Positions 30,099-49,204 of a stretch of 64,000 nucleotides of DNA are shown here, piece after piece. A program made the translations under genes and the position numbers. Position 1 is the stretch's first letter. Each line of letters opens with the position of its first letter. This DNA comes from Alphaproteobacteria bacterium (GTDB lineage: Bacteria; Pseudomonadota; Alphaproteobacteria; UBA11136), in contig JASLYJ010000005.1 in NCBI GenBank assembly GCA_030739855.1, forward strand, positions 181 to 64,180, written 5' to 3'. The notes below the pieces were generated by a model. That model had not been told where the DNA came from and ran no database searches. It saw only the letters and a program-made list of their open reading frames with translations.

Positions 30099-30178
30099 CC
30101 CCCACGAAAAGGACACTTTCCCCGTGTTTTCCCTTGAGGCACATGCGGACCATACGTAGGGTGCCAACGCGGTTATAA

Positions 30179-31078: not shown

Positions 31079-31082
31079 TCCC

Positions 31083-32429
31083 GTGACCTCCGTCCCTACG
31101 CCAGAGAGACTCCACAATCCCGAAGAGGGCTCCGTCCACATCATCGGCGGTGGCCTTTCCGGTCTGGCTAGTGCCGTACGGCTAGTCCAAGCCGGCTGCC
31201 AGCCCGTAATCTACGAATCTACAGACCACGCCGGCGGGCGGTGCCGCTCCCTGTTCGAACCCACGCTTAACCGTCTCATCGACAACGGAAATCATCTCCT
31301 ACTCAGCGGCAACCACGCCACCATGGACTATCTCAAGATCATTGGCGCCCGTGAAGAACTGGCTGTAGCGCCACGTGCAGTTTATACCTTCGTCGACATC
31401 CGTGATGGCAAACGATGGTCCGTAAGGCCCAATAGAGGACGTTTCCCTTGGTGGGTATTGTCAGAATCGAGGCGTGTGCCGGATTCCCGGCCCTGGGATT
31501 ATTTTGCCGCCCTGGGTCTTTCCCGGGTGAAACATGGAAAGACCGTGGCAGAATATTTCGATACAGACCGGAAAATTTTCGAACGATTCTGGGAACCCCT
31601 GACCGTTGCCGTGCTTAACGCCGGCGCCCACGAGGGCGCCGCCTGTTTACTGTGGCCGGTGATCCAACTGACCTTCGGCAAGGGCGAAGCCGCCTGCCGG
31701 CCTTGCTTTCCCTGCCAGGGACTATCTGGAACCTTTGTTGATCCGGCACTAGCTTGGCTTTCCGTAAACGGTGCCGAAGTGAATTTCCAGCATCGGATAC
31801 GCGGCTTCAAGAGACGTTCGGACACAAACGGAAGTACCATAACGGAACTCGACTTTGCCAATGCTTCAATTCCCATTTTGAACAAGGATCGTGTGATTCT
31901 GGCGGTTCCCCCCGATTCCGCGTCTTCCCTGCTTCCCGATATACCTGTTCCCAGCAATAGCCGCGCCATCGTCAATGTACACTTTCTGCTACCTCACCCT
32001 CCTCCCGAAGATGCTCGGAAAACTCGCCTCATGGGTATTATCGGCGGACACGCGCAATGGCTTTTTTTGCGGGAAGATGTCGCTTCGGCAACAGTCAGTG
32101 CCGCTGATAAAGTGGCGTTGGAACAAGCAGAAACTATCGCGCAACGTATCTGGCCCGAAGTCGTCAGCGCTCTAGGTATGGGTAAAGAGAGCCCCTTATC
32201 TCCCTACCGCGTTATTAAGGAAAAACGCGGCACCTTTGCGCAAATACCCGACCAGCTTCCCCTCAGGGCAAAAACAAGGACAGCCTACAATAATCTTTTC
32301 CTAGCAGGCGATTGGACGGATACCGGCCTTCCAGCCACCATCGAAGGGGCCGTAAAGTCGGGATTTGCCGCCGCCGAGGCCGTTTTGGAAGATAAGGAGA
32401 AAAGCAGGAGGAATGGTCTCTGGCCTTGA
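31083..32429 (+). CDS. hpnE: FAD-dependent hydroxysqualene dehydroxylase (amine oxidase family)
   Basis: Dinucleotide fold VHIIGGGLSGLASAVRL near the N-terminus. The start is placed at GTG 31083, just after the hpnD stop. The tracked ORF from 30894 would overlap hpnD by 185 nt. Confidence 0.75.
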   Translation: MTSVPTPERLHNPEEGSVHIIGGGLSGLASAVRLVQAGCQPVIYESTDHAGGRCRSLFEPTLNRLIDNGNHLLLSGNHATMDYLKIIGAREELAVAPRAVYTFVDIRDGKRWSVRPNRGRFPWWVLSESRRVPDSRPWDYFAALGLSRVKHGKTVAEYFDTDRKIFERFWEPLTVAVLNAGAHEGAACLLWPVIQLTFGKGEAACRPCFPCQGLSGTFVDPALAWLSVNGAEVNFQHRIRGFKRRSDTNGSTITELDFANASIPILNKDRVILAVPPDSASSLLPDIPVPSNSRAIVNVHFLLPHPPPEDARKTRLMGIIGGHAQWLFLREDVASATVSAADKVALEQAETIAQRIWPEVVSALGMGKESPLSPYRVIKEKRGTFAQIPDQLPLRAKTRTAYNNLFLAGDWTDTGLPATIEGAVKSGFAAAEAVLEDKEKSRRNGLWP

Positions 32430-32487
32430 CAACCCTTTTTTTGTCAAGATACCTCCCTCGTTCCACGTGACGGAACATGGCCGATTC

Positions 32488-34428
32488 ATGCTGAACAAGC
32501 TCAATAATTCTAAAGACGATCATCTTAAGGCCGTTGAGTCGGTCATTGAGGATGCGTGGCAAGCGCTGAAAGAAACACAACATGAAGACGGGCACTGGGC
32601 CTTCAAGCTCGAGGCAGACGCCACCATCCCTGCGGAATATATCCTGCTCAACCACTTCATCGGAGAAGTAGAGGAGGATATTGAGGCTAAGCTCGCCAAT
32701 TACATCCGTTCGATTCAGTGCGATGACGGAGGATGGCCCCTGTTCCATGCCGGAGACATGGATGTGAGCTGCAGTGTAAAGGCTTATTACGCCCTGAAAA
32801 TCGTCGGCGACGACATCAACGCCCCACATATGAAAAAAACGCGCGCGGCTATTCTCGCCCACGGTGGCGCGGCAAAAAGCAATGTCTTCACCCGTATCTC
32901 ACTTTGCCTGTTCGGCGAAATACCCTGGCGTGCGGTTCCAGTCATGCCGGTTGAAATCATGCTGTTGCCAACCTGGTCTCCTTTCCATCTGAGCAAAGTC
33001 TCCTATTGGTCGCGGACCGTAATCGTTCCTCTGCTTGTGCTCATGGCCCTGAAGCCAAAAGCGGTTAACCCCAATAACGTCAGCGTGCGGGAATTGTTTG
33101 TCACTCCACCTGAAGAACATCGCCGCTATATAACCAATCCGACGGGGGGGGTTTGGGGTGAGGTTTTCCTGGCTATAGACAAGGTTCTTCACGTTATTGA
33201 GCCGTTCTTCCCTAAGGCATTCCACAAGCGGGCCATAGACGCGGCCACCCAATGGTTTACCGAACGCCTGAACGGTGAAGATGGCCTAGGTGCAATCTTT
33301 CCGGCCATGACCAATGCCGTCATGGCCTATCACGCCCTGGGCTACCCAAAAGGCCATCCCGATTTTGCCGTCGCTAAAAAGGCCATACACAAGCTTCTCT
33401 ACCTGGAGGAGGACCAAGGATTCTGCCGACCCTGCACGTCCCCGGTATGGGATACAGGTCTTGCAGCACAAGCCCTGATGGTGGCCGGCGAACCCCATAA
33501 CGGCCCGTGTATCCGCAAGGCCATGGATTGGCTTGTTGATCGGCAAATACTCGATGCAAAGGGTGACTGGGCCAGTGACCGGCCCAGTCTCCGCCCCGGG
33601 GGCTGGGCCTTCCAGTATTGGAATGACTATTACCCGGATGTGGACGATACGGCAGTCGTGATCATGGCACTCGACCGCAGTGGCCGCCACCATTACCAAC
33701 CAGCCATTACCCGCGCCACCGAATGGACCATCGGCATGCAAAACCAGAACGGTGGCTGGGGCGCCTTCGATGCTGACGGCACAAGTTACTATTTGAACCA
33801 CATCCCCTTCGCTGATCACGGAGCGCTTCTTGACCCCCCAACTGCGGATGTGTCGGCCCGCTGCGTCAGTATGCTGGCCCAGCTGGGACACAAGGAAACC
33901 CATCCGGCCTTTTCCCTGGGACTCGAGTATTTAAGGAAAACCCAAGAAGATGATGGCTCTTGGTTCGGCCGCTGGGGAATCAACTATATCTACGGCACAT
34001 GGTCCGTCTTAAGCGCCTTTAATGCCGCAGGCGAGGATATGGATACCCCCCATATCCGCAAGGCCGTGGACTGGCTTAAATCCCGTCAGCGTAACGATGG
34101 TGGATGGGGCGAGGATGGCGCCACCTATTGGCTGGAACGCAAGGAAGAAGTTAAGGAAAGCACCCCCTCTCAAACCGCCTGGGCGGTGCTAGGGCTTATG
34201 GCGGCAGGCGAGGTGCGAAGCAACACCGTGAGACACGGCATCGACTATCTTCTTGCCTCTCCCAGAAGCGGTGCTCGCTGGGACGAAAATCTCTTTACCG
34301 CCGTCGGATTTCCAAGGGTCTTTTATCTGCGCTATCACGGATACGCGAAGTATTTCCCCCTCTGGGCGCTGTCCAGATATCGCAATTTATTGCGGGGAAA
34401 CGCCAAAACCGTACCCTACGGAATGTGA
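32488..34428 (+). CDS. shc: Squalene-hopene cyclase
   Basis: Catalytic DxDD motif (YPDVDDTAVV) and multiple QW repeats (Q..DGGW). The start is either ATG 32488 or ATG 32413. Confidence 0.92.
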   Translation: MLNKLNNSKDDHLKAVESVIEDAWQALKETQHEDGHWAFKLEADATIPAEYILLNHFIGEVEEDIEAKLANYIRSIQCDDGGWPLFHAGDMDVSCSVKAYYALKIVGDDINAPHMKKTRAAILAHGGAAKSNVFTRISLCLFGEIPWRAVPVMPVEIMLLPTWSPFHLSKVSYWSRTVIVPLLVLMALKPKAVNPNNVSVRELFVTPPEEHRRYITNPTGGVWGEVFLAIDKVLHVIEPFFPKAFHKRAIDAATQWFTERLNGEDGLGAIFPAMTNAVMAYHALGYPKGHPDFAVAKKAIHKLLYLEEDQGFCRPCTSPVWDTGLAAQALMVAGEPHNGPCIRKAMDWLVDRQILDAKGDWASDRPSLRPGGWAFQYWNDYYPDVDDTAVVIMALDRSGRHHYQPAITRATEWTIGMQNQNGGWGAFDADGTSYYLNHIPFADHGALLDPPTADVSARCVSMLAQLGHKETHPAFSLGLEYLRKTQEDDGSWFGRWGINYIYGTWSVLSAFNAAGEDMDTPHIRKAVDWLKSRQRNDGGWGEDGATYWLERKEEVKESTPSQTAWAVLGLMAAGEVRSNTVRHGIDYLLASPRSGARWDENLFTAVGFPRVFYLRYHGYAKYFPLWALSRYRNLLRGNAKTVPYGM

Positions 34429-35099
34429 CTTTTACCCCACCAGATAGACCCGGTTTCGTAACCGGCCTCATGGCAGAGGCCGCACATCTTGAAAACATCT
34501 CCTTTTCCACCTTCTGTTCTGGAGGCCACCCACGACGCGCAACAGAAGGCGCCCAACAAATGGTTGATTCTGGCGCTACGGGGCTGGTGAGCTTTGGTAT
34601 CGGCGGTGGATTGGATCCTTCCCTACACCCTGGGTCTCTAGTTGTGGCCACCATGGTCATTACGCCGGAAGGGGACAAAATAAGAACTGATTCCGCCTGG
34701 CAAAATCATATTCAGAAACTAACCCCCGGCCCGTTGGTCATTGCCGGGATAGCCGGCAGCGATCATGCCATTACATCACCCCGAGCTAAGAGCGACCTCT
34801 TCGCCGCAACTGGGGCCGCCGCCGTAGATATGGAAAGTCATGCCGTGGCTAGGGTGGCTACCAAAACGGGAGTGCCATTCCTGGCCCTGCGGGCTATAGC
34901 CGACCCCGCGTGCAGGACCGTACCAGTCTCCGCCATGGGCGGCCTCAGCCCGGATGGTCACACTCGCATCCTGGCTGCACTAGGAAATTTATTGCTTCAT
35001 CCTTGGGAATTGCCCGACCTGCTTCGACTGGCGCTGGATACACAAAAAGGACTGCGCTCTTTACGCCGCGTCGCAGATAGTAGCTTTTCTTCCTCCTGA
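34425..35099 (+). CDS. hpnG: Hopanoid-associated phosphorylase/nucleosidase (PNP_UDP family), HpnG-type
   Basis: GLVSFGIGGGL and VDMESHAVA motifs of the nucleoside phosphorylase fold. The GTG start overlaps the shc stop. Confidence 0.75.
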   Translation: MTFTPPDRPGFVTGLMAEAAHLENISFSTFCSGGHPRRATEGAQQMVDSGATGLVSFGIGGGLDPSLHPGSLVVATMVITPEGDKIRTDSAWQNHIQKLTPGPLVIAGIAGSDHAITSPRAKSDLFAATGAAAVDMESHAVARVATKTGVPFLALRAIADPACRTVPVSAMGGLSPDGHTRILAALGNLLLHPWELPDLLRLALDTQKGLRSLRRVADSSFSSS

Positions 35100-36221
35100 G
35101 TTCCGGGACTTCAATTCCGCGTCCTCCTTCATGGCGATTTCAACCCGTTCATCGCGTGCGTATTCGGCGGGACGGGCATTCTCAAGAGCAATATCCAGTG
35201 CCATGGGGCCTTCGGTTCTGATGCCGCGCAGAGCTAAGATGACAGCCTTCCATGGCTTGGCAACGATATCCGTCACGGCCGTGGCCTCGTATCCACAATG
35301 AGCCATGCAGTTAGCGCATTTTTCATAATTCCCAGTACCGTAGGACTGCCAGTCAGTTTCTTCCATCAGTTCCTTAAAGTTCCCGGCATATCCTTCATCG
35401 AGGAGATAACATGGCCGCTGCCAGCCAAATATGTTGCGGGTCGGGTTTCCCCAAGGTGTGCAATGATAGGTCTGATTTCCGGCCAGAAAATCCAGGAACA
35501 TGAAGGAGTGGCTAAATCGCCATTTTCTTTTCCCGTTGTGGCGGAAAATATCCCGGAACAACTGACGAGTTTTCTCCCGTTTGAGGAAATGGTCCTGATC
35601 TGGTGCCCTTTCATAGGAAAAACCTGGCGATACGGTAATCCCCTCCACGTCTAGTTCCATCATATGGTCAAAAAAATTTGCCATACGTTTCGTGTCAACA
35701 CCCTCGAAAAGCGTGGAGTTTATATTGATGCGGAAACCCCGCCTGTGGGCTTCACGGATAGCGCTGACCGCTTGGTCAAACACGCCGTCCTGGCATACCG
35801 CTGCATCATGTATTTCTCTATCGCCATCGAGATGGATTGAAAAGGTGAGATAGGGACTGGGCTTGAATAGGTCTAGGCGTTTTTCCAGCAATAAGGCGTT
35901 GGTACAAAGATAGACAAACTTCCTTTTGGCGATCAATCCTTCAACAATCTCCTTGATTTCCCCGTGCAACAAGGGCTCCCCCCCAGGGATGGAAACGATA
36001 GGGGCACCGCATTCATCAACTGCATCAAGACATTCCTGAACGCTTAGGCGTTTATTGAGAACGGCATCGGGATAATCGATCTTGCCACATCCCGCACAGA
36101 CAAGATTACAGCGGAAAAGGGGTTCAAGCATCAGCACCAAGGGATAACGCTTAGCACCAAACAGGCGCTGTTTAATGATATAGGCGCCGACTCGCGCTTG
36201 TTGAATAAGAGGGATTGCCAC
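35061..36221 (-). CDS. hpnH: Adenosyl-hopene transferase, radical SAM, HpnH-type
   Basis: MLEPLFRCNLVCAGCGK (CxxxCxxC). 386 aa, placed between hpnG and ispH as in known hopanoid clusters. Confidence 0.88.
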   Translation of the reverse strand: MAIPLIQQARVGAYIIKQRLFGAKRYPLVLMLEPLFRCNLVCAGCGKIDYPDAVLNKRLSVQECLDAVDECGAPIVSIPGGEPLLHGEIKEIVEGLIAKRKFVYLCTNALLLEKRLDLFKPSPYLTFSIHLDGDREIHDAAVCQDGVFDQAVSAIREAHRRGFRININSTLFEGVDTKRMANFFDHMMELDVEGITVSPGFSYERAPDQDHFLKREKTRQLFRDIFRHNGKRKWRFSHSFMFLDFLAGNQTYHCTPWGNPTRNIFGWQRPCYLLDEGYAGNFKELMEETDWQSYGTGNYEKCANCMAHCGYEATAVTDIVAKPWKAVILALRGIRTEGPMALDIALENARPAEYARDERVEIAMKEDAELKSRNSGGRKATICDAA

Positions 36222-36251
36222 GAAGATATTTCTTTCGTCAGTATTCCTGCT

Positions 36252-37214
36252 TTAGGCCCGTTGTGCCAACACGCTCTCAGACAATTGTGGAGGTAGTTTG
36301 AACTGAACGTTCTCATCCTCCCCTTTAGAAGACTCGAGCCTCACCTTCCGACACGTGCGAAGTCTGTCAATCACTTCCTGAACCAACTCCTCGGGTGTCG
36401 ACGCCCCGGCAGTGATACCCAACGTGGCCACACCTTCCAGCCAAGCGGGATCAAAGGCCTGGGGGTCTTCGATCAGATGGGTGGCCACTCCCGTCTCGGA
36501 GCCGATTTCCTGAAGACGATTAGAGTTTGAACTGTTGCTGGCCCCCACCACCAGAAGCATATCAACCTGCCGCGAGAGTGCACGCACCGAGGTCTGACGA
36601 TTTTGCGTGGCATAGCAAATATCCTTCACATCGGGGCCGATGATCGCGGGAAAGCGTGCTTTAAGGGCCCCTATGGTGTCCTTGGTATCATCCACCGAAA
36701 GCGTTGTCTGGCTGACATAAGAAAGTCTACTTGAGTCGGAGACCTCAAGCTTAAAAACGTCCTCAGCACTGGATACAAGATAGACCTTCCCAGGAATGCG
36801 GCCCATGGTACCTTCCACTTCTGGGTGGCCTTCATGCCCGATAAGAACGACCTCGTAGTCGTCTTCGGCATAGCCCTGACCTTCCTTGTGCACTTTAGCC
36901 ACCAGGGGACAGGTGGCATCGAGAAGAGGAAGATTACGAGCGTTGGCAGTGTCTTCCACCGACTGAGCAACTCCGTGGGCGCTAAATATGGTTACGCCAC
37001 CATCGGGGATTTCATCGAGCTCTTCAACAAATACCGCGCCCATGTCTTTCAATCCTTCCACCACCCGTTTGTTATGGACGATTTCATGGCGCACGTAGAC
37101 GGGAGGCCCATAGAGATCCAGCGCCCGTTCTACAATTTCAATAGCTCGCTCTACCCCGGCGCAAAACCCCCTAGGGCAAGCAAGAATGACCCGAAGGTTT
37201 TTCTTAGCGGTCAT
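36252..37214 (-). CDS. ispH: 4-hydroxy-3-methylbut-2-enyl diphosphate reductase
   Basis: PRGFCAGVERAI, HEIVHN, ATCPLV.KVH. The start is placed at ATG 37214. Confidence 0.92.
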   Translation of the reverse strand: MTAKKNLRVILACPRGFCAGVERAIEIVERALDLYGPPVYVRHEIVHNKRVVEGLKDMGAVFVEELDEIPDGGVTIFSAHGVAQSVEDTANARNLPLLDATCPLVAKVHKEGQGYAEDDYEVVLIGHEGHPEVEGTMGRIPGKVYLVSSAEDVFKLEVSDSSRLSYVSQTTLSVDDTKDTIGALKARFPAIIGPDVKDICYATQNRQTSVRALSRQVDMLLVVGASNSSNSNRLQEIGSETGVATHLIEDPQAFDPAWLEGVATLGITAGASTPEELVQEVIDRLRTCRKVRLESSKGEDENVQFKLPPQLSESVLAQRA

Positions 37215-37438
37215 AGGATTTTTTCCATGATCACGACTTAAACAATGGCAACGTGCTTCATAACACGTTGGGAGACCTGCCACAAATCCCTCTGCCATAA
37301 GGATATAAACGGATTTAATTTTCATATGGCGCCGCAAAAGAAAAGAGACAATGCAATTCTGATATCTATATTTTCTTCCCCTTACGCCCGAATGAAGGCC
37401 CGGAAGCTATATATGGACGAAGCCCTGTGTCATAACCT

Positions 37439-38542
37439 GTGCCATGGGAAAATTCCCCGGTACGCATTGATAACAATATCCGCTACCCATTCTGGAAACC
37501 CGTGGTGAAGAATCTTAAATTTCTCTATTTGCTCGTTGGTCTTGTCCTGCTCGCTCTCGTCCTTGCCCATACCGATCTCAGCCAATTATGGGACCAGACC
37601 GTGCGGGTGGGATGGGGAATAGGGGTAATCCTCACCCTCTATCTTATTGCCTTCGTCCTTGATTCCGTTTCCTGGCAACTGGCCCTGCTTCCCTTAAATT
37701 TCGATTCGCTAACCATTTGTAGGGTTTGGAAAATCCGCATGGTCGGCGAAGCTGTAAATAACGCGACGCCGCTGGCCACAATAGGCGGCGAACCGGTTAA
37801 GGCCGTCTTGCTTAAAAAGAATTTCGGCACGGGCTACCGCGAGGGCACGGCCTCGCTCATTATCGCCAAGACCACGAATCTTCTGGCCTTGATCGCGTTT
37901 CTTGCCACCGGATTCGGCCTCATGCTTGTAACCGAAGTGCTGCCGCCCTTCTATAACTTCGTGGCCGGGGCCGGGCTTATCACCTTCACAGCAGGCATCG
38001 TCCTGCTTTTCCTGGTACAGCGTTACAAAATCTCCTCTCTCGCTGGAACCTGGATGGCACAAACGCGGCTTGGACGTTTCCTGGAGAACCTTCTCCATCA
38101 CATCCACGACATGGAAGACCGGCTGATTCATTTCTACACCCGTCATCGCTTGCGTTTCCTGCTGGCGCTTGTTCTGGCCTTCGTCAACTGGGTGATCGGC
38201 GCTCTGGAACTGTATGTCACGCTGCTTTTCCTCGGCCACCCGGTGACCTTCGGCGAAGCCTGGATCATCGAGGCCATCGCCCAGCTGGTACGTAGCGGCG
38301 CCTTTTTCATTCCGGGAGCCCTTGGTATCCAAGAAGGGGCTTTCATGATCGTCATCGAAGCCATGACGGGGCGGGGCGTGCTGGGTCTGGCCGTGGCCAT
38401 GATACGCAGGTTCCGAGAAATCGTCTGGATTACGTGGGGCATGTTGTTGGGTGGATTTTCTTCCTTTTCACCGCAAATGGCCGAGGAGGTCTCCCCGGAA
38501 GTGTCTGGAGAGCCTGCCTCCCCACGAAAACCCCGGACATGA
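37439..38542 (+). CDS. Flippase-like/UPF0104 (lysyl-PG synthase transmembrane region family) membrane protein, HpnL-like
   Basis: Polytopic membrane protein with about 8 transmembrane segments and the IGGEPVKAVLLKK motif typical of this family. The start is uncertain. Its stop forms an ATGA overlap with the next gene. Confidence 0.6.
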   Translation: MPWENSPVRIDNNIRYPFWKPVVKNLKFLYLLVGLVLLALVLAHTDLSQLWDQTVRVGWGIGVILTLYLIAFVLDSVSWQLALLPLNFDSLTICRVWKIRMVGEAVNNATPLATIGGEPVKAVLLKKNFGTGYREGTASLIIAKTTNLLALIAFLATGFGLMLVTEVLPPFYNFVAGAGLITFTAGIVLLFLVQRYKISSLAGTWMAQTRLGRFLENLLHHIHDMEDRLIHFYTRHRLRFLLALVLAFVNWVIGALELYVTLLFLGHPVTFGEAWIIEAIAQLVRSGAFFIPGALGIQEGAFMIVIEAMTGRGVLGLAVAMIRRFREIVWITWGMLLGGFSSFSPQMAEEVSPEVSGEPASPRKPRT

Positions 38543-39141
38543 AACAGGTGCCCCCCTGGGATCAGAGACTGGCCAGAATCATGGTCCGCCCCCTGGCCCG
38601 CACGCCCATCACCCCCAATCAGGTGACAATCTTTACCCTTGTGCTGGCGCTGGCCGCCACCGCCCTGTTCGCGGTGGGGGACAAAACGGCGGCCAACTGG
38701 GCGGCGGGGCTATTCATCCTGGCCCGCTTCATGGATCATTTTGATGGTGAACTGGCCAGGATGACGGGCAAAGCATCCCGTCTCGGCTACTATCTCGACT
38801 ATGTGGCCGGGGGCTTGAGTTACGGCGGACTGTTTCTCGGCATCGGCATCGGGGTGCGGGAGTCCTTCCTCGGCGAATGGGCCATTATTCTGGGGCTGGC
38901 CGCGGCTGGCGGCGCCGTAATCTCCATGTTCCTCAATCTGCACATCGACAAGCAGAACCAACTCAAGGAAGGTAAGACCGTCGGATATCCTAGATTTGCG
39001 GGATTCGAACTGGAGGACGGCATCTATCTGATCGGGCCCATAACCTGGGCCGGATTCCTGACGCCGTTTTTCGCCCTCAGCGTGGCTGGCGCGGTAATCT
39101 ATACGCTGTGGACCCTCGCTACAGTCCTGCGCGGCAAATAG
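38539..39141 (+). CDS. CDP-alcohol phosphatidyltransferase-like membrane protein, paralog 1 (divergent signature)
   Basis: 200 aa, about 6 transmembrane segments. The signature reads DHFDGELAR-x8-G-x3-D-x3-G, so the last Asp of D-x2-DG-x2-AR-x8-G-x3-D-x3-D is replaced by Gly. Confidence 0.65.
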   Translation: MKQVPPWDQRLARIMVRPLARTPITPNQVTIFTLVLALAATALFAVGDKTAANWAAGLFILARFMDHFDGELARMTGKASRLGYYLDYVAGGLSYGGLFLGIGIGVRESFLGEWAIILGLAAAGGAVISMFLNLHIDKQNQLKEGKTVGYPRFAGFELEDGIYLIGPITWAGFLTPFFALSVAGAVIYTLWTLATVLRGK

Positions 39142-40121
39142 CCGTTGCGACAGAACCAATCCACGGCGTCACTGAGGGCTTCCACCGCAGGACGTGGCAC
39201 GTAATCCAGTTCGCGCCGGGCCTTTTCAATAGAAAAAAACATATGTTTTTTCGACAGTTTAAGCGCATCCACGGTGATCATCGGCTCCGGGCCGCCTCGC
39301 AGCCTGGCAAAGGCCTCCGTTATATAGGCGATGGGGAGGATCAGATTGTGGGGAAGGTTGATGAAAGGCGGGCGGCGCCGGGTGAGGCGGGCGATCTCAG
39401 CTAGCACCTGACGTAGAGTGAGGTTCTCAGCGCCAAGAATATAGCGCTCCCCCACCTGCCCCTTTTCATAGGCCAACACGTGCCCCTTTGCCACGTCGTC
39501 CACATGTACAAAATTAAGACCAGTATCCACGAAGGCAGGCATTTTCCCGGCGGCGGCCTGAACGATCATCTTGCCAGTGGGGGTGGGCTTGATATCGCGC
39601 GGACCGATAGGGGCGGCGGGATTAACGATCACCGCAGGCAGAGAGTCTTCGGCGATGAGGCGCCTAACTTCCTCCTCGGCCAGAAATTTTGAGCGTTTGT
39701 AATCCCCGATCATATCCTTCAAGGATACGACTGTGTCTTCATCGGAGGGCGTGCCGTCTGCGTTAAGCCCCAAGGTTGCCACGCTGCTAGTATAGACGAT
39801 GCGTTTTACTCCAACCTCACTAGCAACCTCCATGATATTGCGGGTACCGCGAACGTTTGACTCGTAGATTTCCTCTGGGTTCGACGCCCAGAGCCGGTAA
39901 TCGGCGGCCACATGAAACAGGGCGTCGCACCCAGCCAGGGCCTTGACCAGGGAATTACGGTTGGACAAATCACCAATGGCGATTTCAACTTTCTGTCCTG
40001 TCAGGTTGCGACGATCGCTGGTGGGGCGCAGCAGCGCCTTCACCTCGTGTCCGGCTTGCACCGCTTCACGCAGTACGGCTGAGCCGACGAATCCCGATGC
40101 TCCGGTCACAAGCGTGGTCAT
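39099..40121 (-). CDS. hpnA: NAD-dependent epimerase/dehydratase/reductase (extended SDR), HpnA-like hopanoid-associated enzyme
   Basis: VTGASGFVGSAV Rossmann motif and the YKRSK catalytic motif. 340 aa. The start ATG at 40121 forms an ATGA overlap with the upstream gene's stop. Confidence 0.75.
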   Translation of the reverse strand: MTTLVTGASGFVGSAVLREAVQAGHEVKALLRPTSDRRNLTGQKVEIAIGDLSNRNSLVKALAGCDALFHVAADYRLWASNPEEIYESNVRGTRNIMEVASEVGVKRIVYTSSVATLGLNADGTPSDEDTVVSLKDMIGDYKRSKFLAEEEVRRLIAEDSLPAVIVNPAAPIGPRDIKPTPTGKMIVQAAAGKMPAFVDTGLNFVHVDDVAKGHVLAYEKGQVGERYILGAENLTLRQVLAEIARLTRRRPPFINLPHNLILPIAYITEAFARLRGGPEPMITVDALKLSKKHMFFSIEKARRELDYVPRPAVEALSDAVDWFCRNGYLPRRTVARVHSV

Positions 40122-40738
40122 GGTTGGCCTTGCCCTTTTGAACTCTGCACGCATTTCCAGATCACCCACAGCAGGAACAAGGGTGCGCCGATCCCGGCAG
40201 CCACAAGAAAGAGGGGGTCATAACCCAGCCAGGTAACCGGGCCGATGATATAAAGGGTATCTTCTGGCTCAAACCCGGCAATACTGCGCTGCTTGACAGC
40301 TTCCACGCCTTCCCGGACTTCGATCCACATCCGCACGCTCATGGTCGCCACCACTGCGAGACTGGCCGCCACGCCCAATGGCACCGCCCAATCCCCCAAC
40401 GGTCCGTGACGCAAGCCAATTCCCATCCCCACGAACAAAGAAACGTAGCTGACGGCCACTGCTACGTGATCGTAATAATGACCGAAAGTGCTGGTCTTAT
40501 TCACCAGACGCGCAAGTTCCCCGTCGGCATGGTCCATGAAGGCGGCAAACATGAATACCCCGGCGGCCCAGTTTGCAAGGACTAGATCTCCCTGAGCGAA
40601 GAGGCATCCCGCCAACAGCCCCATCATCAAACCCAGGGTGGTAACAGCGTTGGGATGGATGGAGGTATGAGCCAGCAACCCAGCCAGGATGCGAGCTAGA
40701 CGCTGGTCCCAAGCAATATTTTCCAAGGGATTACTCAT
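40118..40738 (-). CDS. CDP-alcohol phosphatidyltransferase-like membrane protein, paralog 2 (divergent signature)
   Basis: 206 aa. The signature reads DHADGELAR-x8-G-x3-D-x3-V. It is clearly paralogous to 38539-39141 (shared WDQRLARI, ANWAAG, FMDH.DGELAR, AGFE.ED..Y.IGP.TW). Both ends have ATGA overlaps. Confidence 0.65.
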   Translation of the reverse strand: MSNPLENIAWDQRLARILAGLLAHTSIHPNAVTTLGLMMGLLAGCLFAQGDLVLANWAAGVFMFAAFMDHADGELARLVNKTSTFGHYYDHVAVAVSYVSLFVGMGIGLRHGPLGDWAVPLGVAASLAVVATMSVRMWIEVREGVEAVKQRSIAGFEPEDTLYIIGPVTWLGYDPLFLVAAGIGAPLFLLWVIWKCVQSSKGQGQP

Positions 40739-41484
40739 GCTTCCGGATCCTTCAGCTGGGGAAGAATTTCTTCCCGAGCACGCTCCACGTCTTCTGGAAA
40801 GTCGATCTCGATCCAAGGAAGGTCCGTCACGTCTTCAAACCCAAAGGTCCCGGAGGGACACTCTACAACAAGGTCCCGAATAGCCTCTTCGTACCATTCC
40901 TCCCCTCTTCCCTCATCCACGTAGGCCTGGGTCCTACTGGCAAGACGCCTCGCGATACCCGGCGAAAAACGGAAAAACCCGACAGACTCCCCGCAAAAGT
41001 CGTAGGTGCTTGCGATCTTCTTGTGGAAATCGACAATCTTACCGTCCCTAATACAAAGCTTCACCGGCTCGTCCCCGGCCTCAAAATCGCGGTCTATGAG
41101 GAAGCAGTTAGCGTTCCCTGAATCCCGCAGGCGCTCGATCATGCGAAAATCACTAAGTACATCGGCATCCATAAGAAGAATTTCATCACCACAACGAAGA
41201 ACGTTCTGGGCCGTCCACAAGGAAAGAATACTGCCCAATCGAAAATCCGGGTTCATGAGGGTGCGCACAAAACCTTCTGCTTTTTGGAGAGACACCGCCT
41301 CCTCTAAGATCTCGGCGTTGTACCCGGTAACGACAACAACTTCCTCCAACCCGCAATGATGTAAAATTTTCAGATGCCGGGAAAGAAGCGTCCTCTCTGC
41401 AAAACGCAGCATGGCCTTTGGCGGATGGTCCTCTCCCAAGCCCAACCGAGCGCCAACGCCAGCTGCAAGGATAATCGCCCTCAT
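40735..41484 (-). CDS. LicC/MobA-like nucleotidyltransferase (cytidylyl/nucleotidyl transfer to a phospho- or phosphono-alcohol)
   Basis: MRAIILAAGVGARLG nucleotide-binding signature. 249 aa. The start is 2 nt after the hpnN stop. Confidence 0.7.
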   Translation of the reverse strand: MRAIILAAGVGARLGLGEDHPPKAMLRFAERTLLSRHLKILHHCGLEEVVVVTGYNAEILEEAVSLQKAEGFVRTLMNPDFRLGSILSLWTAQNVLRCGDEILLMDADVLSDFRMIERLRDSGNANCFLIDRDFEAGDEPVKLCIRDGKIVDFHKKIASTYDFCGESVGFFRFSPGIARRLASRTQAYVDEGRGEEWYEEAIRDLVVECPSGTFGFEDVTDLPWIEIDFPEDVERAREEILPQLKDPEA

Positions 41485-41486
41485 GT

Positions 41487-44183
41487 TCAACCTCTCCCGG
41501 TGCGGGGGAAATAGTGCTCCCGGCAAACCAAAAGGCAAGGCAGAGCTACCAGCGTACACACTAAGGCAAAGGTCAGGGAAATGGCCAAAAGCTGGCCCAT
41601 GCTTGCGGTGCCTAAATGGCTTGAAATGGCCAGAGTGCCGAACGAACACATGGTGGTAAGCGCACTGAAAAGAATGGCCCGTGGCGTATTGGTGGTCATG
41701 ACATCGGCGATAGAATCTGCACTGCGTTCACGCAAAACGAGGTAGATACCGTAGGCAACGCCGAGGCTGAGCAACAGCGGTATCGCGATAATGTTGGCGA
41801 AGTTGAAGGGAATGCCGAAAATCACGGAGCTTGAGGCCGTAAACACTGCGGCCAAAGTTAATGGCAACAGGACAAGAAGCGTATCAATTACACTTCGCAG
41901 CACGATCAAGAGAAGAACAGTGATAGCGACCAGGGATAGAAACCCGGCCTGTTTGAAGGCTGTTGTGACGGCGGCCCCCCCTTCCAGTAAAATAACCGGA
42001 TCTTCGGTGGCGTTGGGAGCCACCTTGCGTATGGCGGTCACGAATCGTCGCAGGGCGTCATTGCTGGTCAGAGCTTCGGAGGGAAAGACCTCCACCAGGG
42101 TGCGGCCATCGGCGGTGATTTTTCGTTGGCGCAAAAGTTCCGGTAGGTCCTCAGCCGCGACCTCCCGGGCATTTAAGGACTGTTGCAGCTTTTCCAGCCG
42201 CTTGGGCAGGGAGGACAACAGCAGCATTTCCAGGTCTTCCAGCGATTGTCCGTTCTCGTGGCTCGATTCTTCGAACCGCGTCAGAGCATTGATCAGCCGT
42301 CTGGCGGGCGCGTCGAGAATGCTCACTAGGGATGTGTCAATGAGGTGTTCCAGGTTTTTCTTTAATTCGGAAACCACCTTTTTGCGCCCATTATTGTCCA
42401 GTGGCCTGTCCAATGGGGAAGCGTCGAGAATGGGAAAAAGGAACAGCGCCATGTCGTCAACCATGAAGAGTTTCTCTTCCTGGTCCTGCGGCACAAAATC
42501 AGCCAAGCTCACCGTGTGATCAACCTGCGGCAAGGCCTCCAGCCTTTGGACAAGGTTTTGCGCCTCCTCCACATTATCGGCGAGAATCTGGATGGTATAA
42601 AAAGACGTTTTGCTGTCCTTCATTAAATCGAGCGCCGTCTGCACGGATTCCGTGGTGGGGTCTTTTAGGTTCATAGGATCGAAATCGAATTGCAGCCGTG
42701 GCAGGAATGCTACGGCAGCGGCAACCCCCAACACCAGCGCCCAAAAGGAAATGCTTTCGGCATGCTCCAGCAGGAACCCAGGCGCCGGGTTTGGTCCCCA
42801 CTTTATTTTTCGCCACCCTTTCCAAGCCGGGAGCAGGCCCTCCCCGTGTTTAAGTGACATTACGGTCAGACAGGCCGGCAGGACCGTAAGATTGGCTAAC
42901 AAAGCGATCATCATGCTGCCGCCGGAAATAATTCCCAGTTCCGACAAGCCAAGATAGTCCGTGGGCACAAACGAGAAAAATCCAATGGCCGCGGCAATAG
43001 CAGCTAGTGTCAACGCGCCGCCGACCCCCGTAGCCGATTCGCGAAGTGCCTCCTCGTGGGACTGGCCGCGATCTACAGCCTCGCGGTAGCGAAGGCAGAA
43101 CTGGATTCCAAAATCCACTCCGATCCCGATAAACAGAACGCCAAAGGCCACGGAAATAAGATTGAGCTGTCCTACGGCGAAGGTGGCGTATCCCCCCGTC
43201 CACATGAGCCCCATAACTAATGTGATCAGAGTCGCCGCGGCAAGACGCAACGAGCCCAGGCCTATGGTCACTAACACGCCCACAAGTATAAGGGCCAGGG
43301 CGACCGCAGCACTTGCCCCTTCGGTGACACTCACCATTTCTTCTTGACTCAGGACCGTGCCACCTGTCAACCGCACCTGCACCCCGTGTTCGGAATCGAG
43401 ATGAAGCGCTCTGGCCGCCGCACGGATGATTTTTACCGCCTGTCTAGCGGGCTGCAGAGAAGATTTGTCAAGTTTTGGTTGCACCAGGATAAAGCGGCGA
43501 AGATCATCTTGTTCCACCTCACCACCCATCATCATCTTGCGCCACGACATGGGACGCGGATTGCCTTCCTGTTGTTTCTCAATAGTTTCGGAAATGTTAT
43601 GAAAAATTCTAACCAGGCGTGAAGGGTCTTCATCGCCCTTGGTCACTTCGTCTATGGCCTCGTTGAGCACGTCGAAAAAACCACGAAGGTTCATATCTCC
43701 TGCCAAGGCTGCCAGCAGAGGTTGGGCATCGGCCAGGCGGTTGGAAAGATCGGCCAACTCGTCTTCGTCCAGGAACAGCAGGCCGTTGGTGATAAAAAAG
43801 GGATTGCTTGCCGGGTCGAAAACGAATTTGAATTCCTCGGTTTCTGTCTTGAGCCGCGCCGCCAGTGCTGCGGTGGCATCCTCCGTTATGTCCGGGGTTT
43901 CGCCTTCCACGACGATGGTGATGTTGTTCCTGAGATTGGGAAAGGCGCGCCTGTATTCGTCGTAAATCTTGCGGAAGGGGAGATCTGAGGACAGCATGTC
44001 CGACGTGGAGGTGTTGATTCTAAGATGCTCCACCGTATAGAACAGCGACATACCGGCGACCGAAGCCGCCACAAGAAGAATTGGGACCGCGGCTTTTCTC
44101 GCAGCATCTACCCAGCACGCAAGAAACCGCAGGTAAGTGTCTCCGAACGCCTTGATCACGCCATAATCCTCATGGAGAAACAC
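41487..44183 (-). CDS. hpnN: Hopanoid transporter, RND/MMPL superfamily, HpnN-type
   Basis: 898 aa with two blocks of 6 transmembrane segments and large periplasmic loops. The N-terminal RINTSTSDMLSSDLPF region is typical of HpnN. GTG start. Confidence 0.85.
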   Translation of the reverse strand: MFLHEDYGVIKAFGDTYLRFLACWVDAARKAAVPILLVAASVAGMSLFYTVEHLRINTSTSDMLSSDLPFRKIYDEYRRAFPNLRNNITIVVEGETPDITEDATAALAARLKTETEEFKFVFDPASNPFFITNGLLFLDEDELADLSNRLADAQPLLAALAGDMNLRGFFDVLNEAIDEVTKGDEDPSRLVRIFHNISETIEKQQEGNPRPMSWRKMMMGGEVEQDDLRRFILVQPKLDKSSLQPARQAVKIIRAAARALHLDSEHGVQVRLTGGTVLSQEEMVSVTEGASAAVALALILVGVLVTIGLGSLRLAAATLITLVMGLMWTGGYATFAVGQLNLISVAFGVLFIGIGVDFGIQFCLRYREAVDRGQSHEEALRESATGVGGALTLAAIAAAIGFFSFVPTDYLGLSELGIISGGSMMIALLANLTVLPACLTVMSLKHGEGLLPAWKGWRKIKWGPNPAPGFLLEHAESISFWALVLGVAAAVAFLPRLQFDFDPMNLKDPTTESVQTALDLMKDSKTSFYTIQILADNVEEAQNLVQRLEALPQVDHTVSLADFVPQDQEEKLFMVDDMALFLFPILDASPLDRPLDNNGRKKVVSELKKNLEHLIDTSLVSILDAPARRLINALTRFEESSHENGQSLEDLEMLLLSSLPKRLEKLQQSLNAREVAAEDLPELLRQRKITADGRTLVEVFPSEALTSNDALRRFVTAIRKVAPNATEDPVILLEGGAAVTTAFKQAGFLSLVAITVLLLIVLRSVIDTLLVLLPLTLAAVFTASSSVIFGIPFNFANIIAIPLLLSLGVAYGIYLVLRERSADSIADVMTTNTPRAILFSALTTMCSFGTLAISSHLGTASMGQLLAISLTFALVCTLVALPCLLVCREHYFPRTGRG

Positions 44184-44280: not shown

Positions 44281-44916
44281 ATGGCGCGTTATCGCCTGAC
44301 AAGCCGATTGGCCATTGTAATCACCTTTGGTTTAAGCGTGCTTATAACGTCTCCGGCCAATGCCGAGCAAGGGCCAGCCCGTCCTATCGTTGAACGCTTT
44401 CATGACACGCTGCTCTTCGTCATGAAGGAAGCAGAGAACCTTGGCTACGAAGGCCGCTTTGAGCGGCTGACCCCGGCTATAAGGGAGAGTTTTAACCTAT
44501 CCTTTATGACCAGCCGTTCGACCGGTTATCACTGGAAGAGGGCTTCCAACGAAGAACACCAGGATCTGATCGACGCCTTTACCAATATGACAATCGCTAA
44601 CTACGCATCACGTTTTGACGGATATTCCGGGGAAATATTTGAAACCGTCGCAGTCAAGGAAGGACCAAGAGATTCTATCATCGTTAAAACCAGGATCGTA
44701 AAGAATGATGGCGAAAAAATCGCCCTGAACTACATGATGCGGGAATTTGGCGGTAAATGGCAGGTTATCGACATCTTTCTTAAAGGCACCTTCAGCGAAC
44801 TGGCCACGCGAAAGTCTGAGTATTCCTCCCTGATACGCGACGGTGGCTTTCCGAAGCTTATCGCCAGCATGAAGAAAAAAACGGAAAAAATCAGGAATAA
44901 GACACTAACTCCCTAA
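44281..44916 (+). CDS. hpnM: MlaC/Ttg2D-like periplasmic lipid-binding protein, HpnM-type
   Basis: 211 aa with a signal peptide (AIVITFGLSVLITSPANA). Family pattern ...W.V.D....G.S...T.R.E. Divergent from hpnN. Confidence 0.7.
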   Translation: MARYRLTSRLAIVITFGLSVLITSPANAEQGPARPIVERFHDTLLFVMKEAENLGYEGRFERLTPAIRESFNLSFMTSRSTGYHWKRASNEEHQDLIDAFTNMTIANYASRFDGYSGEIFETVAVKEGPRDSIIVKTRIVKNDGEKIALNYMMREFGGKWQVIDIFLKGTFSELATRKSEYSSLIRDGGFPKLIASMKKKTEKIRNKTLTP

Positions 44917-45042: not shown

Positions 45043-46707
45043 ATGACAACGGCCGCCAAACCAGCACTTAGTGTCGCCCCAACGCCCCTGTCAAAAGCGG
45101 CGCAGCTGCGCCGTGAACTGACCTCGCCAGAGCTTTCCTTCCTCATGGAAGCTCATAACGGCCTGTCCGCAAAAATCGTCGAAGAAGCCGGCTTCCGCGG
45201 CATTTGGGCATCGGGCCTTTCCGTCTCGGCCACCCTTGGCGTCAGGGACAGCAACGAAGCGTCCTGGACACAAGTGCTTGAAGTCCTGGAGTTCATGTCC
45301 GATGCCACCACCATCCCCGTCCTCGTGGACGGTGATACGGGCTATGGCAACTTCAATAATCTGCGGCGGCTAGTCAAGAAACTGTGCCAGTACAACATCG
45401 CCGGGGTCTGTATCGAAGACAAGCTTTTCCCCAAGACAAACTCTTTTATCGGCGAGGCGCAGCCATTGGCCAACATCGAGGAATTCTGTGGCAAGATCAA
45501 GGCCGGGAAAGACAGCCAGCTTGATGACGATTTTTCGCTCATCGCCCGTATCGAGGCATTGGTAGCAGGATGGGGGATTGACGAGGCTCTGCACCGGGCC
45601 GAGGCCTATCACGCCGCTGGCGCCGATGCCATATTAATTCATTCCAAGCTTTCCACCGCCGACGAGATTCTAGCCTTCAAACATGACTGGGGCGAGAGGT
45701 GCCCAGTGGTGATCGTGCCCACCATGTATTACGAAACTCCCACCGAAGCCTTCAGAACGGCCGGTATCTCCATGGTGATCTGGGCCAACCATAATCTTCG
45801 CGCTTCCATCTCAGCCATGCGTGATGTGTGCCGGAAAATCTGTGAGGAACAGAGGCTGGTGGATATCGAGGATAAAATTACAAGTGTGCAGGATGTATTC
45901 GAACTTGTGGGCAATCAGGAGCTGGCCGAAGCCGAAAGGCGCTATCTAACCTCTACGGAGAAGAAAACCCACGGCATAGTAATCGCGGCCTCCAGGGGTA
46001 GGAAGCTGGGCGACCTTACGGCAGATCAGCCGAAATGCATGGTGGATATCCGTGGTAAACCGCTACTGAGGCGTCTGATCTCGACCATGAAAAAGGGCGG
46101 CGTGCGTGACATCATGGTGGTACGTGGCTACAAGAAGGAAAAGATCAACCTTCCTTCAATCACCACCGTAGACAACGATTCCTACAACACTACGAACGAG
46201 GCCTATTCCCTTTCTTGTGCTCTTCAGCATATTGAGGGCGACTGTGTCTTCAGCTATGGGGACATCCTGTTCCGCCGTTCCATCCTTGATGCCCTCCTAG
46301 CTGCATCGGCCGATATCGTCCTTGCTGTGGATGCCCGTGGACATGGCTTCGATTTCCATGATGTGGAGCGCAAGGTAGACCTGGTGAGCTGCACCCGCTC
46401 CTTCAGCGGCGATTATTTTGAGGAGACCCCCCCCGTCTCAGTGGTGAAAATTGGCAATGACCTACCCAGTGACGACGTCCACGGCGAATGGATAGGCCTG
46501 GCCCGCACCAGCGCCCGCGGCTCCAAGATCATCCAGGAGCAACTCGGCACCATGAAAAAGGACGGATGTCTGGAGACCTCCACCATGCTGGATCTTTTTT
46601 CGAACATCCTCGAGGCTGGACACCATGTGGAAGCCTTGTATGTAGCCGGCCATTGGCTAGACGTAGACGACGCCTTTGATCTCGCCAAGGCGCGGAACTT
46701 CACCTAA
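45043..46707 (+). CDS. pepM: Phosphoenolpyruvate phosphomutase fused to a C-terminal LicC-like nucleotidyltransferase (PntC-type phosphonate cytidylyltransferase)
   Basis: The N-terminal ~290 aa carry the PepM signature [12 protein letters not shown] (EDK-x5-NS) and DGDTGYGN. The C-terminal ~250 aa carry [14 protein letters not shown] and the nucleotidyltransferase fold. Confidence 0.9.
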
Positions 46708-46749: not shown

Positions 46750-47889
46750 ATGATTCCGGCCAGTGAATTTATCAACTCAGCCAAGGGTATCGGTTACGAC
46801 TTCTATACCGGAGTTCCCTGTTCCTTTCTGACTCCTATCCTCAATGGCGTCATCAGTGACCGGAGGCTCGATTATGTGGGTGCGGCCAGCGAGGGCGAGG
46901 CTGTGGCCATCGCTGCTGGGGCGTGGCTAGCGACCCGTAAGACGGTTGTCATGTGCCAGAATTCAGGCCTCGGCAATGCCGTCAACCCCTTGACCTCTCT
47001 CAACCATCCTTTCCGCATCCCCACCCTCTTCATAACTACCTGGCGGGGCCAGCCGGGGTTACAGGACGAACCACAGCACGAGGTCATGGGGCAAATCACC
47101 GACAGGCTGCTTGAGACCATAGCCATACCCCATGACCTATTCCCCGATGAAAGCGACCTTATTTCTCCAGCGCTGGAAAAAGCTGACGCCGTTATGGAGA
47201 AAACATCCCTACCTTTCGCCTTTATCATGAAAAAGGGCAGCCTGCGCGATGATGTACTCCACCAAGCACCGCTCCCCTCCCGGCCGCCGGGAGAGTATTC
47301 TTGCCTTCTAGAAAACGTGGACCGCCCCTCCCGGCAACAGGTCTTGGAGCGTTTTCTGGGATTGGTGCCGGACAAGGCTGCCGTCATCGCCACCACAGGT
47401 AAATGTGGACGCGAGCTTTTCACGCTCAATGACCGAGTACAGCATCTCTACCAAGTAGGATCCATGGGCTGCGCTGCCGGCATGGGACTGGGCGTGGCCC
47501 TGAATACATCCCGGTCCGTGGTGGTTCTCGACGGCGATGGTGCATCACTGATGAAGATGGGTACACTCGCCACCATCGGCGCCTATGCGCCCCCCGGACT
47601 GGTGCACATTATTCTCGATAACGGTGTTCACGATTCCACGGGTGGCCAGGCCACGGTCTCGAAACACGTAGATTTTGCCCAAGTGGCGTTAGCCTGCGGC
47701 TACGCCCGCGCTGCGTCTTGTGACTCCCTTGAGGGGTTCGAACGAGCGTTGGTGAACGCTTCCAACGGCGGGGGGCCAAACCTCATCCATATGCGAATTA
47801 TACCAGGCTCCATGTCGCCGCTGGGCCGGCCCGCAGTGAAGCCTTGCGAGGTGGCTCGCCGGTTTAAGGAGTTTCTTTCCAAGGACTAA
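46750..47889 (+). CDS. ppd: Phosphonopyruvate decarboxylase (ThDP-dependent)
   Basis: 379 aa. FYTGVPCSFL at the N-terminus and the ThDP motif VLDGDGASLM...LDNG. Confidence 0.88.
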   Translation: MIPASEFINSAKGIGYDFYTGVPCSFLTPILNGVISDRRLDYVGAASEGEAVAIAAGAWLATRKTVVMCQNSGLGNAVNPLTSLNHPFRIPTLFITTWRGQPGLQDEPQHEVMGQITDRLLETIAIPHDLFPDESDLISPALEKADAVMEKTSLPFAFIMKKGSLRDDVLHQAPLPSRPPGEYSCLLENVDRPSRQQVLERFLGLVPDKAAVIATTGKCGRELFTLNDRVQHLYQVGSMGCAAGMGLGVALNTSRSVVVLDGDGASLMKMGTLATIGAYAPPGLVHIILDNGVHDSTGGQATVSKHVDFAQVALACGYARAASCDSLEGFERALVNASNGGGPNLIHMRIIPGSMSPLGRPAVKPCEVARRFKEFLSKD

Positions 47890-48998: not shown

Positions 48999-49204
48999 GG
49001 GCCACACATCCATAAAACGCCGGCCGGTCGCCACACCATTTTTTTAATTTACAGGGTGCGACGAACCGGTCGATCTAAAGGAATGCGCAGAGTAACCCGC
49101 CAACCTCACCATAAAAAGAGGCCATGGAACAGGGGCAACGAAAAGGAAACCCCTTTTCCATCACAACCCCTCAGGAGAACGGCCGGAGAAACCTCAGCCA
49201 AGCA

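Follow-up and report, generated by a model that had tools for sequence, protein, structure and literature searches.

A selected clade of CDP-alcohol phosphotransferases without the fourth signature aspartate, paired in a hopanoid and phosphonate gene cluster of an alphaproteobacterium

Enzymes of the CDP-alcohol phosphotransferase (CDP-AP) family take the substituted phosphate of a CDP-alcohol and pass it to an acceptor alcohol, releasing CMP, and they carry the signature D-x2-D-G-x2-A-R-x8-G-x3-D-x3-D, whose four aspartates are called D1 to D4 below. D4 has been described as one of eight absolutely conserved residues in these enzymes and as their likely catalytic base (PMC4634129). Our subject is a pair of paralogous CDP-APs without D4, encoded among hopanoid and phosphonate genes in a 64,000-nt stretch of DNA ("the window") from an Alphaproteobacteria bacterium (UBA11136; assembly GCA_030739855.1, contig JASLYJ010000005.1, positions 181-64,180). 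We name them by the residue at D4, paralog 1 being of the G-type and paralog 2 of the A/V/M-type. As far as sequences can tell, the absence of D4 sets apart a subfamily of its own that is under selection and is no sign of decay, and the pair is functional, working either by a modified mechanism or as non-catalytic partner subunits. Our literature search found no paper describing CDP-APs without D4.

The structurally described proteins with which the pair compares are AF2299 (4o6m/4o6n) and the DIPP synthase domain of IPCT-DIPPS (4mnd), both from Archaeoglobus fulgidus, and the bacterial PIP synthases (5d92, 6h59, 6wm5). These share with the pair the family fold of six transmembrane (TM) helices, whose active site lies where TM2 and TM3 end on the cytoplasmic side, and the motifs PNxxT and D1xxD2GxxAR...GxxxD3, and IPCT-DIPPS also shares the cytidylyltransferase that is encoded beside the transferase or fused to it. 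The pair differs from all of them in the Gly or Val at D4 and in an acidic GFE.ED motif in the C-terminal half, at an identity of 16-23%. By analogy with TM4-6 of the PIP synthase and its residues R153 and R191 (PMC4634129), we assign the GFE.ED region to a putative acceptor pocket.

Among described gene clusters, the closest is the "Burkholderiales_CDP-OH" or "Group 1 phosphonolipid" family, for which Li & Horsman 2022 (PMC8942020) cite Yu et al. 2013. According to Li & Horsman, it is the ppm cluster family found most often in bacteria, no product of it has yet been characterized, and its core consists of Ppm-PntC, Ppd, AEPT, a second PntC, a CDP-OH transferase and a second phospholipid-type gene, with an alpha-ketoglutarate/Fe(II) oxygenase among the seven core genes that is predicted to give 1-hydroxy-2-aminoethylphosphonate (1-hydroxy-AEP). 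Squalene/hopene cyclase genes sometimes lie near ppm, and two papers that note this briefly (PMC8942020, PMC8776678) call the possible product a "phosphonoterpene" or an "undiscovered terpene-phosphonate"; Roseomonas strains with shc linked to pepM are among the culturable carriers (PMC8776678). PepM-PF12804 fusions and PntC cytidylyltransferases that make CMP-AEP have also been described (PMC6697681).

Most of this core recurs in the window, which encodes a Ppm-PF12804 fusion, Ppd, AEPT, a second PntC-like nucleotidyltransferase, PF01066 transferases and an LPG_synthase_TM protein; the last we take to be the second of the two "phospholipid biosynthesis" genes of the published core. Alphaproteobacterial loci with the exact core (L046, L057, L058 in our numbering of loci) belong to the same protein subfamily. 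Unlike the sampled core-type loci, which keep D4, the window has a duplicated transferase with both copies lacking it, and hpnA, hpnN, hpnM and the hopanoid core are interspersed with its module. No open reading frame (ORF) for an alpha-ketoglutarate oxygenase was found in the window cluster, and in the genome, which is 88% complete, the only PhyH matches lie on contigs C43 and C17 and there is no TauD match. Several D4-intact members of the subfamily, one of them named from Steroidobacteraceae, are fused to a HalD-like/2OG-Fe(II) oxygenase domain (PF23169; P0187, P0427, P0442, P0452, P0453, P0456, P0458, P0459, P0464), and this domain may be the core oxygenase that is absent from the window cluster. 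The subfamily corresponds to the CDP-OH transferase of the Group 1 phosphonolipid clusters, and the window pair belongs to a hopanoid-cluster branch of it.

The locus also follows MprF-type logic, in which a lipid head-group synthase is joined to a flippase domain: transferases of the subfamily are fused, or linked by translational coupling, to a membrane protein of the MprF flippase type (PF03706). It differs in having a CDP-AP where MprF has an aminoacyl-phosphatidylglycerol synthase, and in its additional RND exporter and MlaC-like carrier. What hpnA and hpnL do, and whether HpnL acts as a flippase, was still unknown in 2025 (PMC12583986).

The original prediction had described two paralogs with common blocks that flank hpnA in opposite orientations, with D4 replaced by Gly in one and by Val in the other and the rest of the signature kept, and all of this is borne out. 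Both proteins score above the PF01066 cut-off of 22 bits and are 46% identical to each other across 195 residues (E 1e-56), sharing the blocks WDQRLARI, ANWAAG, FMDH.DGELAR, GIG.R and AGFE.ED..Y.IGP.TW. PNxxT, D1, D2, G, A, R, G and D3 are kept in both, the signature residues being D66, D69, G70, A73, R74, G83 and D87 in paralog 1 and D69, D72, G73, A76, R77, G86 and D90 in paralog 2. Ungapped phmmer alignments to AF2299 (4o6m) and the PIP synthases place Gly91 and Val94 at D4. A true D4 displaced by one helical turn would have undone the claim; neither paralog has an Asp or Glu between D3 and the end of TM3, hence there is no shifted D4, and D4 is retained in each of the genome's four other PF01066 proteins. 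The AlphaFold2 (AF2) model of paralog 1 has six TM helices and a juxtamembrane helix (predicted local distance difference test [pLDDT] 92, predicted template-modelling score [pTM] 0.88). Foldseek matches it to AF2299 (TM-score 0.73), AF2299 and the PIP synthases together ranging from 0.70 to 0.73 at a probability of 1.00. Against the equivalog models for archaetidylinositol-phosphate/PIP synthases (NF040950 and NF045883), the proteins reach only 33-59 bits where the cut-offs are 170-180.

The absence of D4 is a stable property of these proteins, well past what chance would produce. Gly occupies D4, and Tyr D3+1, in every one of the top 120 homologs of paralog 1, whose identity falls as low as about 61%. 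Among 118 motif-bearing homologs of paralog 2 the residue at D4 is A in 60, V in 33, M in 15, G in 6, T in 3 and S in 1, never Asp, and 97 of the 118 have His at D3+1. An alignment of 53 homologs of both types shows D8, P26, N27, D66, H67, D69, G70, A73, R74, G83, D87, G155, F156, E157, E159 and D160 to be invariant. The acidic GFE.ED motif, which lies at the cytoplasmic end of TM5 where that helix starts, is kept in all types, whether D4-less or D4-intact.

An HMMER search of 1.84 billion representative sequences returned 371 proteins at E<=1e-10, and the best 150 of them include both D4-intact and D4-less members. A careful IQ-TREE analysis of 75 genome-derived sequences (supports given as pairs) places all D4-less proteins in one clade (96/85), within which the G subclade (98/95) and the A/V/M subclade (85/81) are sisters, with the D4-intact relatives outside; the whole forms a hopanoid-cluster CDP-AP subfamily. 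A tree computed quickly from 115 representatives has broadly the same shape. These trees indicate that a D4-intact ancestor gave rise to a single D4-less clade, which then split into the G-type and the A/V/M-type, and they answer the question raised with the original prediction of whether the proteins without D4 form a clade. One protein nested in the G subclade (L040:8697-9353) has Asp at D4 ("DQ..D") and is paired with a V-type copy across hpnA; it looks like a reversion of the loss.

The missing Asp is also what one would see if the genes were decaying duplicates, or if it were a sequencing or assembly artefact, and it is the only observation that speaks for either. Neither the window nor any orthologous locus has a broken ORF, so that no frameshifted or interrupted ortholog points to pseudogenization; the ratio of nonsynonymous to synonymous substitution rates (dN/dS), with L001-L003 supplying the orthologs for comparison, lies at 0.13-0.19 in both paralogs and at 0.10-0.18 in hpnA, hpnL and the nucleotidyltransferase gene; and the same class of residue recurs at D4 in hundreds of independent metagenomic sequences. 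We give decay or artefact practically no credence. Because of the low dN/dS, the intact orthologs and the monophyly of the D4-less proteins, we regard them as a distinct subfamily, as had been proposed.

We surveyed 401 alphaproteobacterial genomes, of which 47 carry the subfamily; 40 regions were fetched and annotated against the window proteins. The frequencies below refer to 28 loci with D4-less copies and 20 with D4-intact copies only. The D4-intact enzyme occurs as a single copy in L005-7, L046, L050, L051, L060 and L062. A G-type copy stands beside a D4-intact paralog in six loci (L016, L027-29, L031, L033), and beside an A/V/M-type copy, usually with hpnA between the two, in the window and in L001-3, L030, L039, L043 and L044, while L004/L022/L026 and L036 have the G-type, the A/V/M-type and a third, D4-intact subfamily paralog that we call CDP3. 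The inverted pair of the original prediction is thus real in the window, yet it is only one arrangement among several that include pairs with a D4-intact partner, triplets and tandem fusions. In 19 of 22 cases the G-type shares its locus with a second paralog, and across the pair loci the gene order is conserved, with the A/V/M-type gene directly downstream of the nucleotidyltransferase gene.

Whether the D4-less clade is linked to pepM or hpn genes had been raised as a question, and the link is real. A CMP-phosphonate donor, with a chemistry unlike that of a CDP-alcohol, had been put forward as the cause of the D4 loss, and the association of the pair with a complete AEP pathway and two nucleotidyltransferases, in the window and in many relatives, would fit it. 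Phosphonate genes (pepM-NT or ppd) are, however, present in 13 of the 28 D4-less loci and in 9 of the 20 D4-intact-only loci, so that having or lacking D4 shows no relation to the phosphonate pathway. Equivalent pepM/ppd/aepT clusters contain D4-intact orthologs (L006, L007, L046, L050, L051, L060, L062), and D4-less copies sit in hpn clusters with no pepM nearby (L016, L019, L043). Eukaryotic enzymes of the ethanolamine-phosphotransferase type, which accept CMP-AEP, keep the full motif as well. This explanation of the loss is very improbable.

The link to hopanoid genes bears on the acceptor. One or more of hpnA, hpnL, hpnN, hpnM, hpnH, ispH and shc embed the transferase in 25 of the 28 D4-less and 17 of the 20 D4-intact-only loci, and fusions of CDP-AP to LPG_synthase_TM (HpnL-type) in both orders, to MMPL (HpnN; P0166) and to NTP_transf_3 exist. 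We weighed against a hopanoid acceptor the alternative that the transferases are active on an ordinary glycerolipid such as diacylglycerol or on another non-hopanoid acceptor, that the product is the long-predicted Group 1 phosphonolipid, and that the hopanoid linkage reflects shared export through HpnN and HpnM and co-regulation of outer-membrane lipids. It draws on the Burkholderiales clusters, where the same core, LPG_synthase_TM included, has been annotated as phosphonolipid (PMC8942020), and on the subfamily loci that have no hpn genes nearby (L047, L053, L054, L056, L063). The interleaving and translational coupling of hpnA, hpnL, hpnN and hpnM in most loci, the direct fusion to HpnN, and the triads of nucleotidyltransferase, CDP-AP and hpnA in hpn clusters without pepM (L041, L049, L055) make it quite improbable. 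In L053 and L054 (genomes G086 and G252), single "DR..M" A/V/M-type copies have no recognizable hpn, nucleotidyltransferase or pepM gene in the fetched flanks; the D4-less type is not always cluster-bound.

The likeliest reading, which we hold tentatively, is that the pair forms a heteromeric head-group transferase that moves AEP onto a hopanoid or other lipid without D4. A more specific form of it is unlikely as a whole: an obligate heterodimer that uses CMP-AEP to esterify the side chain of a bacteriohopanepolyol with AEP, the resulting phosphono-hopanoid, a class of lipid so far unobserved, being flipped by HpnL and exported by HpnN/HpnM, with a base or metal ligand other than D4, for example GFE.ED. 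In this scheme, PepM-NT, Ppd and the AEP transaminase would make AEP, which a cytidylyltransferase would convert to CMP-AEP. The paralogs, most likely as a heterodimer, would then bind CMP-AEP through the retained nucleotide-metal site (PNxxT, D1, D2, G, A, R, G and D3) and would pass its phosphonyl head group on to a lipid alcohol, for which an extended hopanoid, through its side chain, is the most plausible candidate. Flipping of the resulting lipid would fall to HpnL, and its outward transport to HpnN and HpnM.

The role of D4 as base and second metal ligand would presumably be assumed by another residue, for which conservation suggests GFE.ED (E157/E159/D160), His67, the Tyr or His at D3+1 (Y88/H91) and Asp8 as candidates. 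The residue at D3+1, which precedes D4 by one helical turn, did not hold up as a clean compensation: His is found in just the 97 A/V/M-type homologs counted above, and Tyr is also present in D4-intact relatives. Compared with these relatives, the D4-less clade has Asp8 in the WDQRLA helix, has lost Arg33, and has Ala in place of Ser62 and Tyr in place of Asn95. We considered Arg33, Ser62 and Asn95 as a functional unit with D4 and rejected it, since AF2299 and MtPgsA1 have no Arg at the equivalent position (alignments by eye) and the three are therefore features of the subfamily and not of catalysis in general.

We favour an active enzyme without D4 because of the retained nucleotide-metal site, the purifying selection, the order of nucleotidyltransferase and transferase genes, and the genomes in which no non-housekeeping CDP-AP other than the D4-less pair was identified; with the whole nucleotide-metal site kept, a dead enzyme is not what one would expect. 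A heteromer is favoured by the adjacency of the paralogs, the tandem fusions and the obligate dimer architecture of the family, in which the protomers meet through TM3/TM4. We know of no heteromeric CDP-AP described so far, although no search aimed at one was made. The tandem CDP-AP::CDP-AP fusions form a small clade (P0121 and P0389-P0392, the latter 75-88% identical to P0121) of proteins of about 407 amino acids (aa) encoded between a nucleotidyltransferase gene and hpnA, P0121 at L014:1300-2523. At D4 the N-terminal half has Asp in P0391 and Thr in P0121 and P0389. Which donor is used, that a heterodimer forms and that it is active without D4 are inferences, as is the acceptor, which we deduce from gene linkage alone.

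A number of observations weigh against such an enzyme. In the M. tuberculosis PIP synthase, D93N, which replaces D4 by Asn, nearly abolishes activity and leaves substrate binding intact (PMC4634129), and D4 ligates a mobile second Mg (PMC6506517). The D4 position varies in the A/V/M-type, as expected of a site without function. The C-terminal halves of four of the five tandem fusions (P0121, P0390, P0391, P0392) lack both D3 and D4; thus dead protomers do arise in the subfamily. The AF2 model of the tandem fusion has two well-formed six-TM halves, with a pTM (0.65) too low to speak to dimer packing. Our literature search found no phospho- or phosphono-hopanoid, and the string "phosphon" is absent from the text of PMC12583986. 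Finally, this genome also encodes a D4-intact CDP3, which relatives have within the cluster in the triplet loci named above, and the true catalyst here could be that protein.

In this genome CDP3 lies outside the window (contig C109:51955-52830), flanked on one side by rlmE/guaB and on the other by a gene, parE/gyrB-like by eye, for the B subunit of a type II topoisomerase. It is a protein of about 220-230 aa with the motif DNCDGEIARL...FDTFVD, and copies in relatives are found at L022:12261-12917 and L036:3744-4955. In a genome of the same family, CDP3 takes the place of hpnL and stands directly beside the G-type gene inside the hopanoid-phosphonate cluster.

Several of these points would be explained if one or both of the pair were pseudoenzymes that bind the CMP- or CDP-activated head group and metal and do not transfer, serving as partner protomers, as substrate-presenting or regulatory subunits, or as membrane anchors for HpnA, HpnL or HpnN, with a D4-intact paralog, here CDP3, as the catalyst. 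D93N is a precedent for binding without activity, the variability of D4 in the A/V/M-type fits, CDP3 is at hand, the six loci with a G-type gene and a D4-intact neighbour have the pattern of one active and one dead protomer, and P0391 repeats it within one chain, its N-terminal half keeping D4 and its C-terminal half lacking D3 and D4. Against this, all other catalytic and nucleotide-binding residues are invariant in both types, the dN/dS of the paralogs is as low as that of the neighbouring enzymes, and CDP3 is found here in a housekeeping neighbourhood. Furthermore, two genomes, G184 (99% complete) and, as a weaker case, G143 (81% complete), carry the cluster with a G-type and A-type pair. 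The other PF01066 proteins identified in them are only PgsA/PssA-type housekeeping orthologs, without a CDP3, and a CDP-AP step in these genomes, if it exists, must be performed by the D4-less pair, because no other non-housekeeping CDP-AP was identified. On balance we consider pseudoenzymes, the main rival to our reading, somewhat unlikely.

Whether the pair turns out to be an active heteromer or a set of partner subunits, it represents a large, ancient and selected clade that has dispensed with D4 and kept every other active-site residue, and it offers a natural test of the mechanism in which D4 is the base. One possibility is that some contexts make D4 dispensable; the other is that dedicated pseudoenzyme subunits have evolved in the family. 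The proteins stand where two questions meet, the product of the commonest bacterial ppm cluster family (PMC8942020) and the function of hpnA and hpnL (PMC12583986). A phosphonate-capped hopanoid, if it exists, would add to the known membrane lipids and might serve as a geochemical biomarker that marine Alphaproteobacteria leave behind.

The coordinates of the cluster are collected in Table 1. With shc, hpnC/D/E, hpnG and hpnH present and HpnA and HpnM above their curated cut-offs, the window contains an hpn cluster. The HpnL-like protein scores 160.9 bits against TIGR03476, under the cut-off of 195.65, and the PEP mutase carries a ten-residue motif of the EDKXXXXXNS class. In phmmer searches, the stand-alone nucleotidyltransferase matches the structures of PntC (6pd1), LicC (1jyk) and IPCT (2xme).

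Table 1. Features of the hopanoid and phosphonate gene cluster, in window positions
Feature	Positions	Strand	Basis
hpnC, hpnD, hpnE, shc, hpnG (+), hpnH, ispH (-); hopanoid core	29190..37337		ORFs and synteny with L001-L004
HpnL-like flippase-type membrane protein (LPG_synthase_TM)	37439..38542	+	PF03706, 98 bits
Paralog 1, CDP-AP of the G-type, 200 aa	38539..39141	+	PF01066, 47.6 bits
D4 codon of paralog 1, GGG (Gly91)	38809..38811	+	Alignments
hpnA, hopanoid-associated short-chain dehydrogenase/reductase, between the paralogs	39099..40121	-	TIGR03466, 488 bits (cut-off 368)
Paralog 2, CDP-AP of the A/V/M-type, 206 aa	40118..40738	-	PF01066, 53 bits
D4 codon of paralog 2, GTG (Val94)	40457..40459	-	Alignments
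Stand-alone LicC/PntC/IPCT-like nucleotidyltransferase, directly upstream of paralog 2	40735..41484	-	PF12804, 50.6 bits
hpnN, RND/MMPL hopanoid exporter	41487..44183	-	ORF and synteny; PF03176 matches on orthologs
hpnM, MlaC-like periplasmic lipid carrier	44281..44916	+	TIGR03481, 197 bits (cut-off 160)
Phosphoenolpyruvate (PEP) mutase (PepM) fused to NTP_transf_3 nucleotidyltransferase	45043..46707	+	TIGR02320, 394 bits, and PF12804
Phosphonopyruvate decarboxylase (Ppd)	46750..47889	+	TIGR03297, 426 bits
AEP:pyruvate transaminase	47886..49034	-	NF010006, 549 bits

The operon that contains paralog 2 begins with hpnN and continues with the nucleotidyltransferase gene, paralog 2 and hpnA. ATGA start/stop overlaps join the nucleotidyltransferase gene to paralog 2 (40735-40738), paralog 2 to hpnA (40118-40121) and hpnL to paralog 1 (38539-38542), and paralog 1 and hpnA converge with an overlap of 43 nt (39099-39141).

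The best PDB match of HpnA is 3wj7 ("putative oxidoreductase," E 1.7e-115), followed by cinnamoyl-CoA and dihydroflavonol reductases, with weaker matches to NDP-sugar epimerases. Purely as speculation, HpnA could be a carbonyl reductase acting on the hopanoid side chain, for example from ribosylhopane to bacteriohopanetetrol. As an idea only, the donor might instead be a CDP-ribosylhopane, with HpnG as a phosphorylase, the nucleotidyltransferase as a sugar-1-phosphate cytidylyltransferase and HpnA acting on the nucleotide-linked substrate; the closer match of HpnA to carbonyl reductases than to NDP-sugar enzymes argues against it. The assembly measures 1.41 Mb in 109 contigs, and genomes of the same genus measure 2.0-2.5 Mb. 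The closest public loci come from metagenome-assembled genomes of Rhodospirillaceae and other Alphaproteobacteria from the Black Sea and, judging by an isolate name, the Red Sea.

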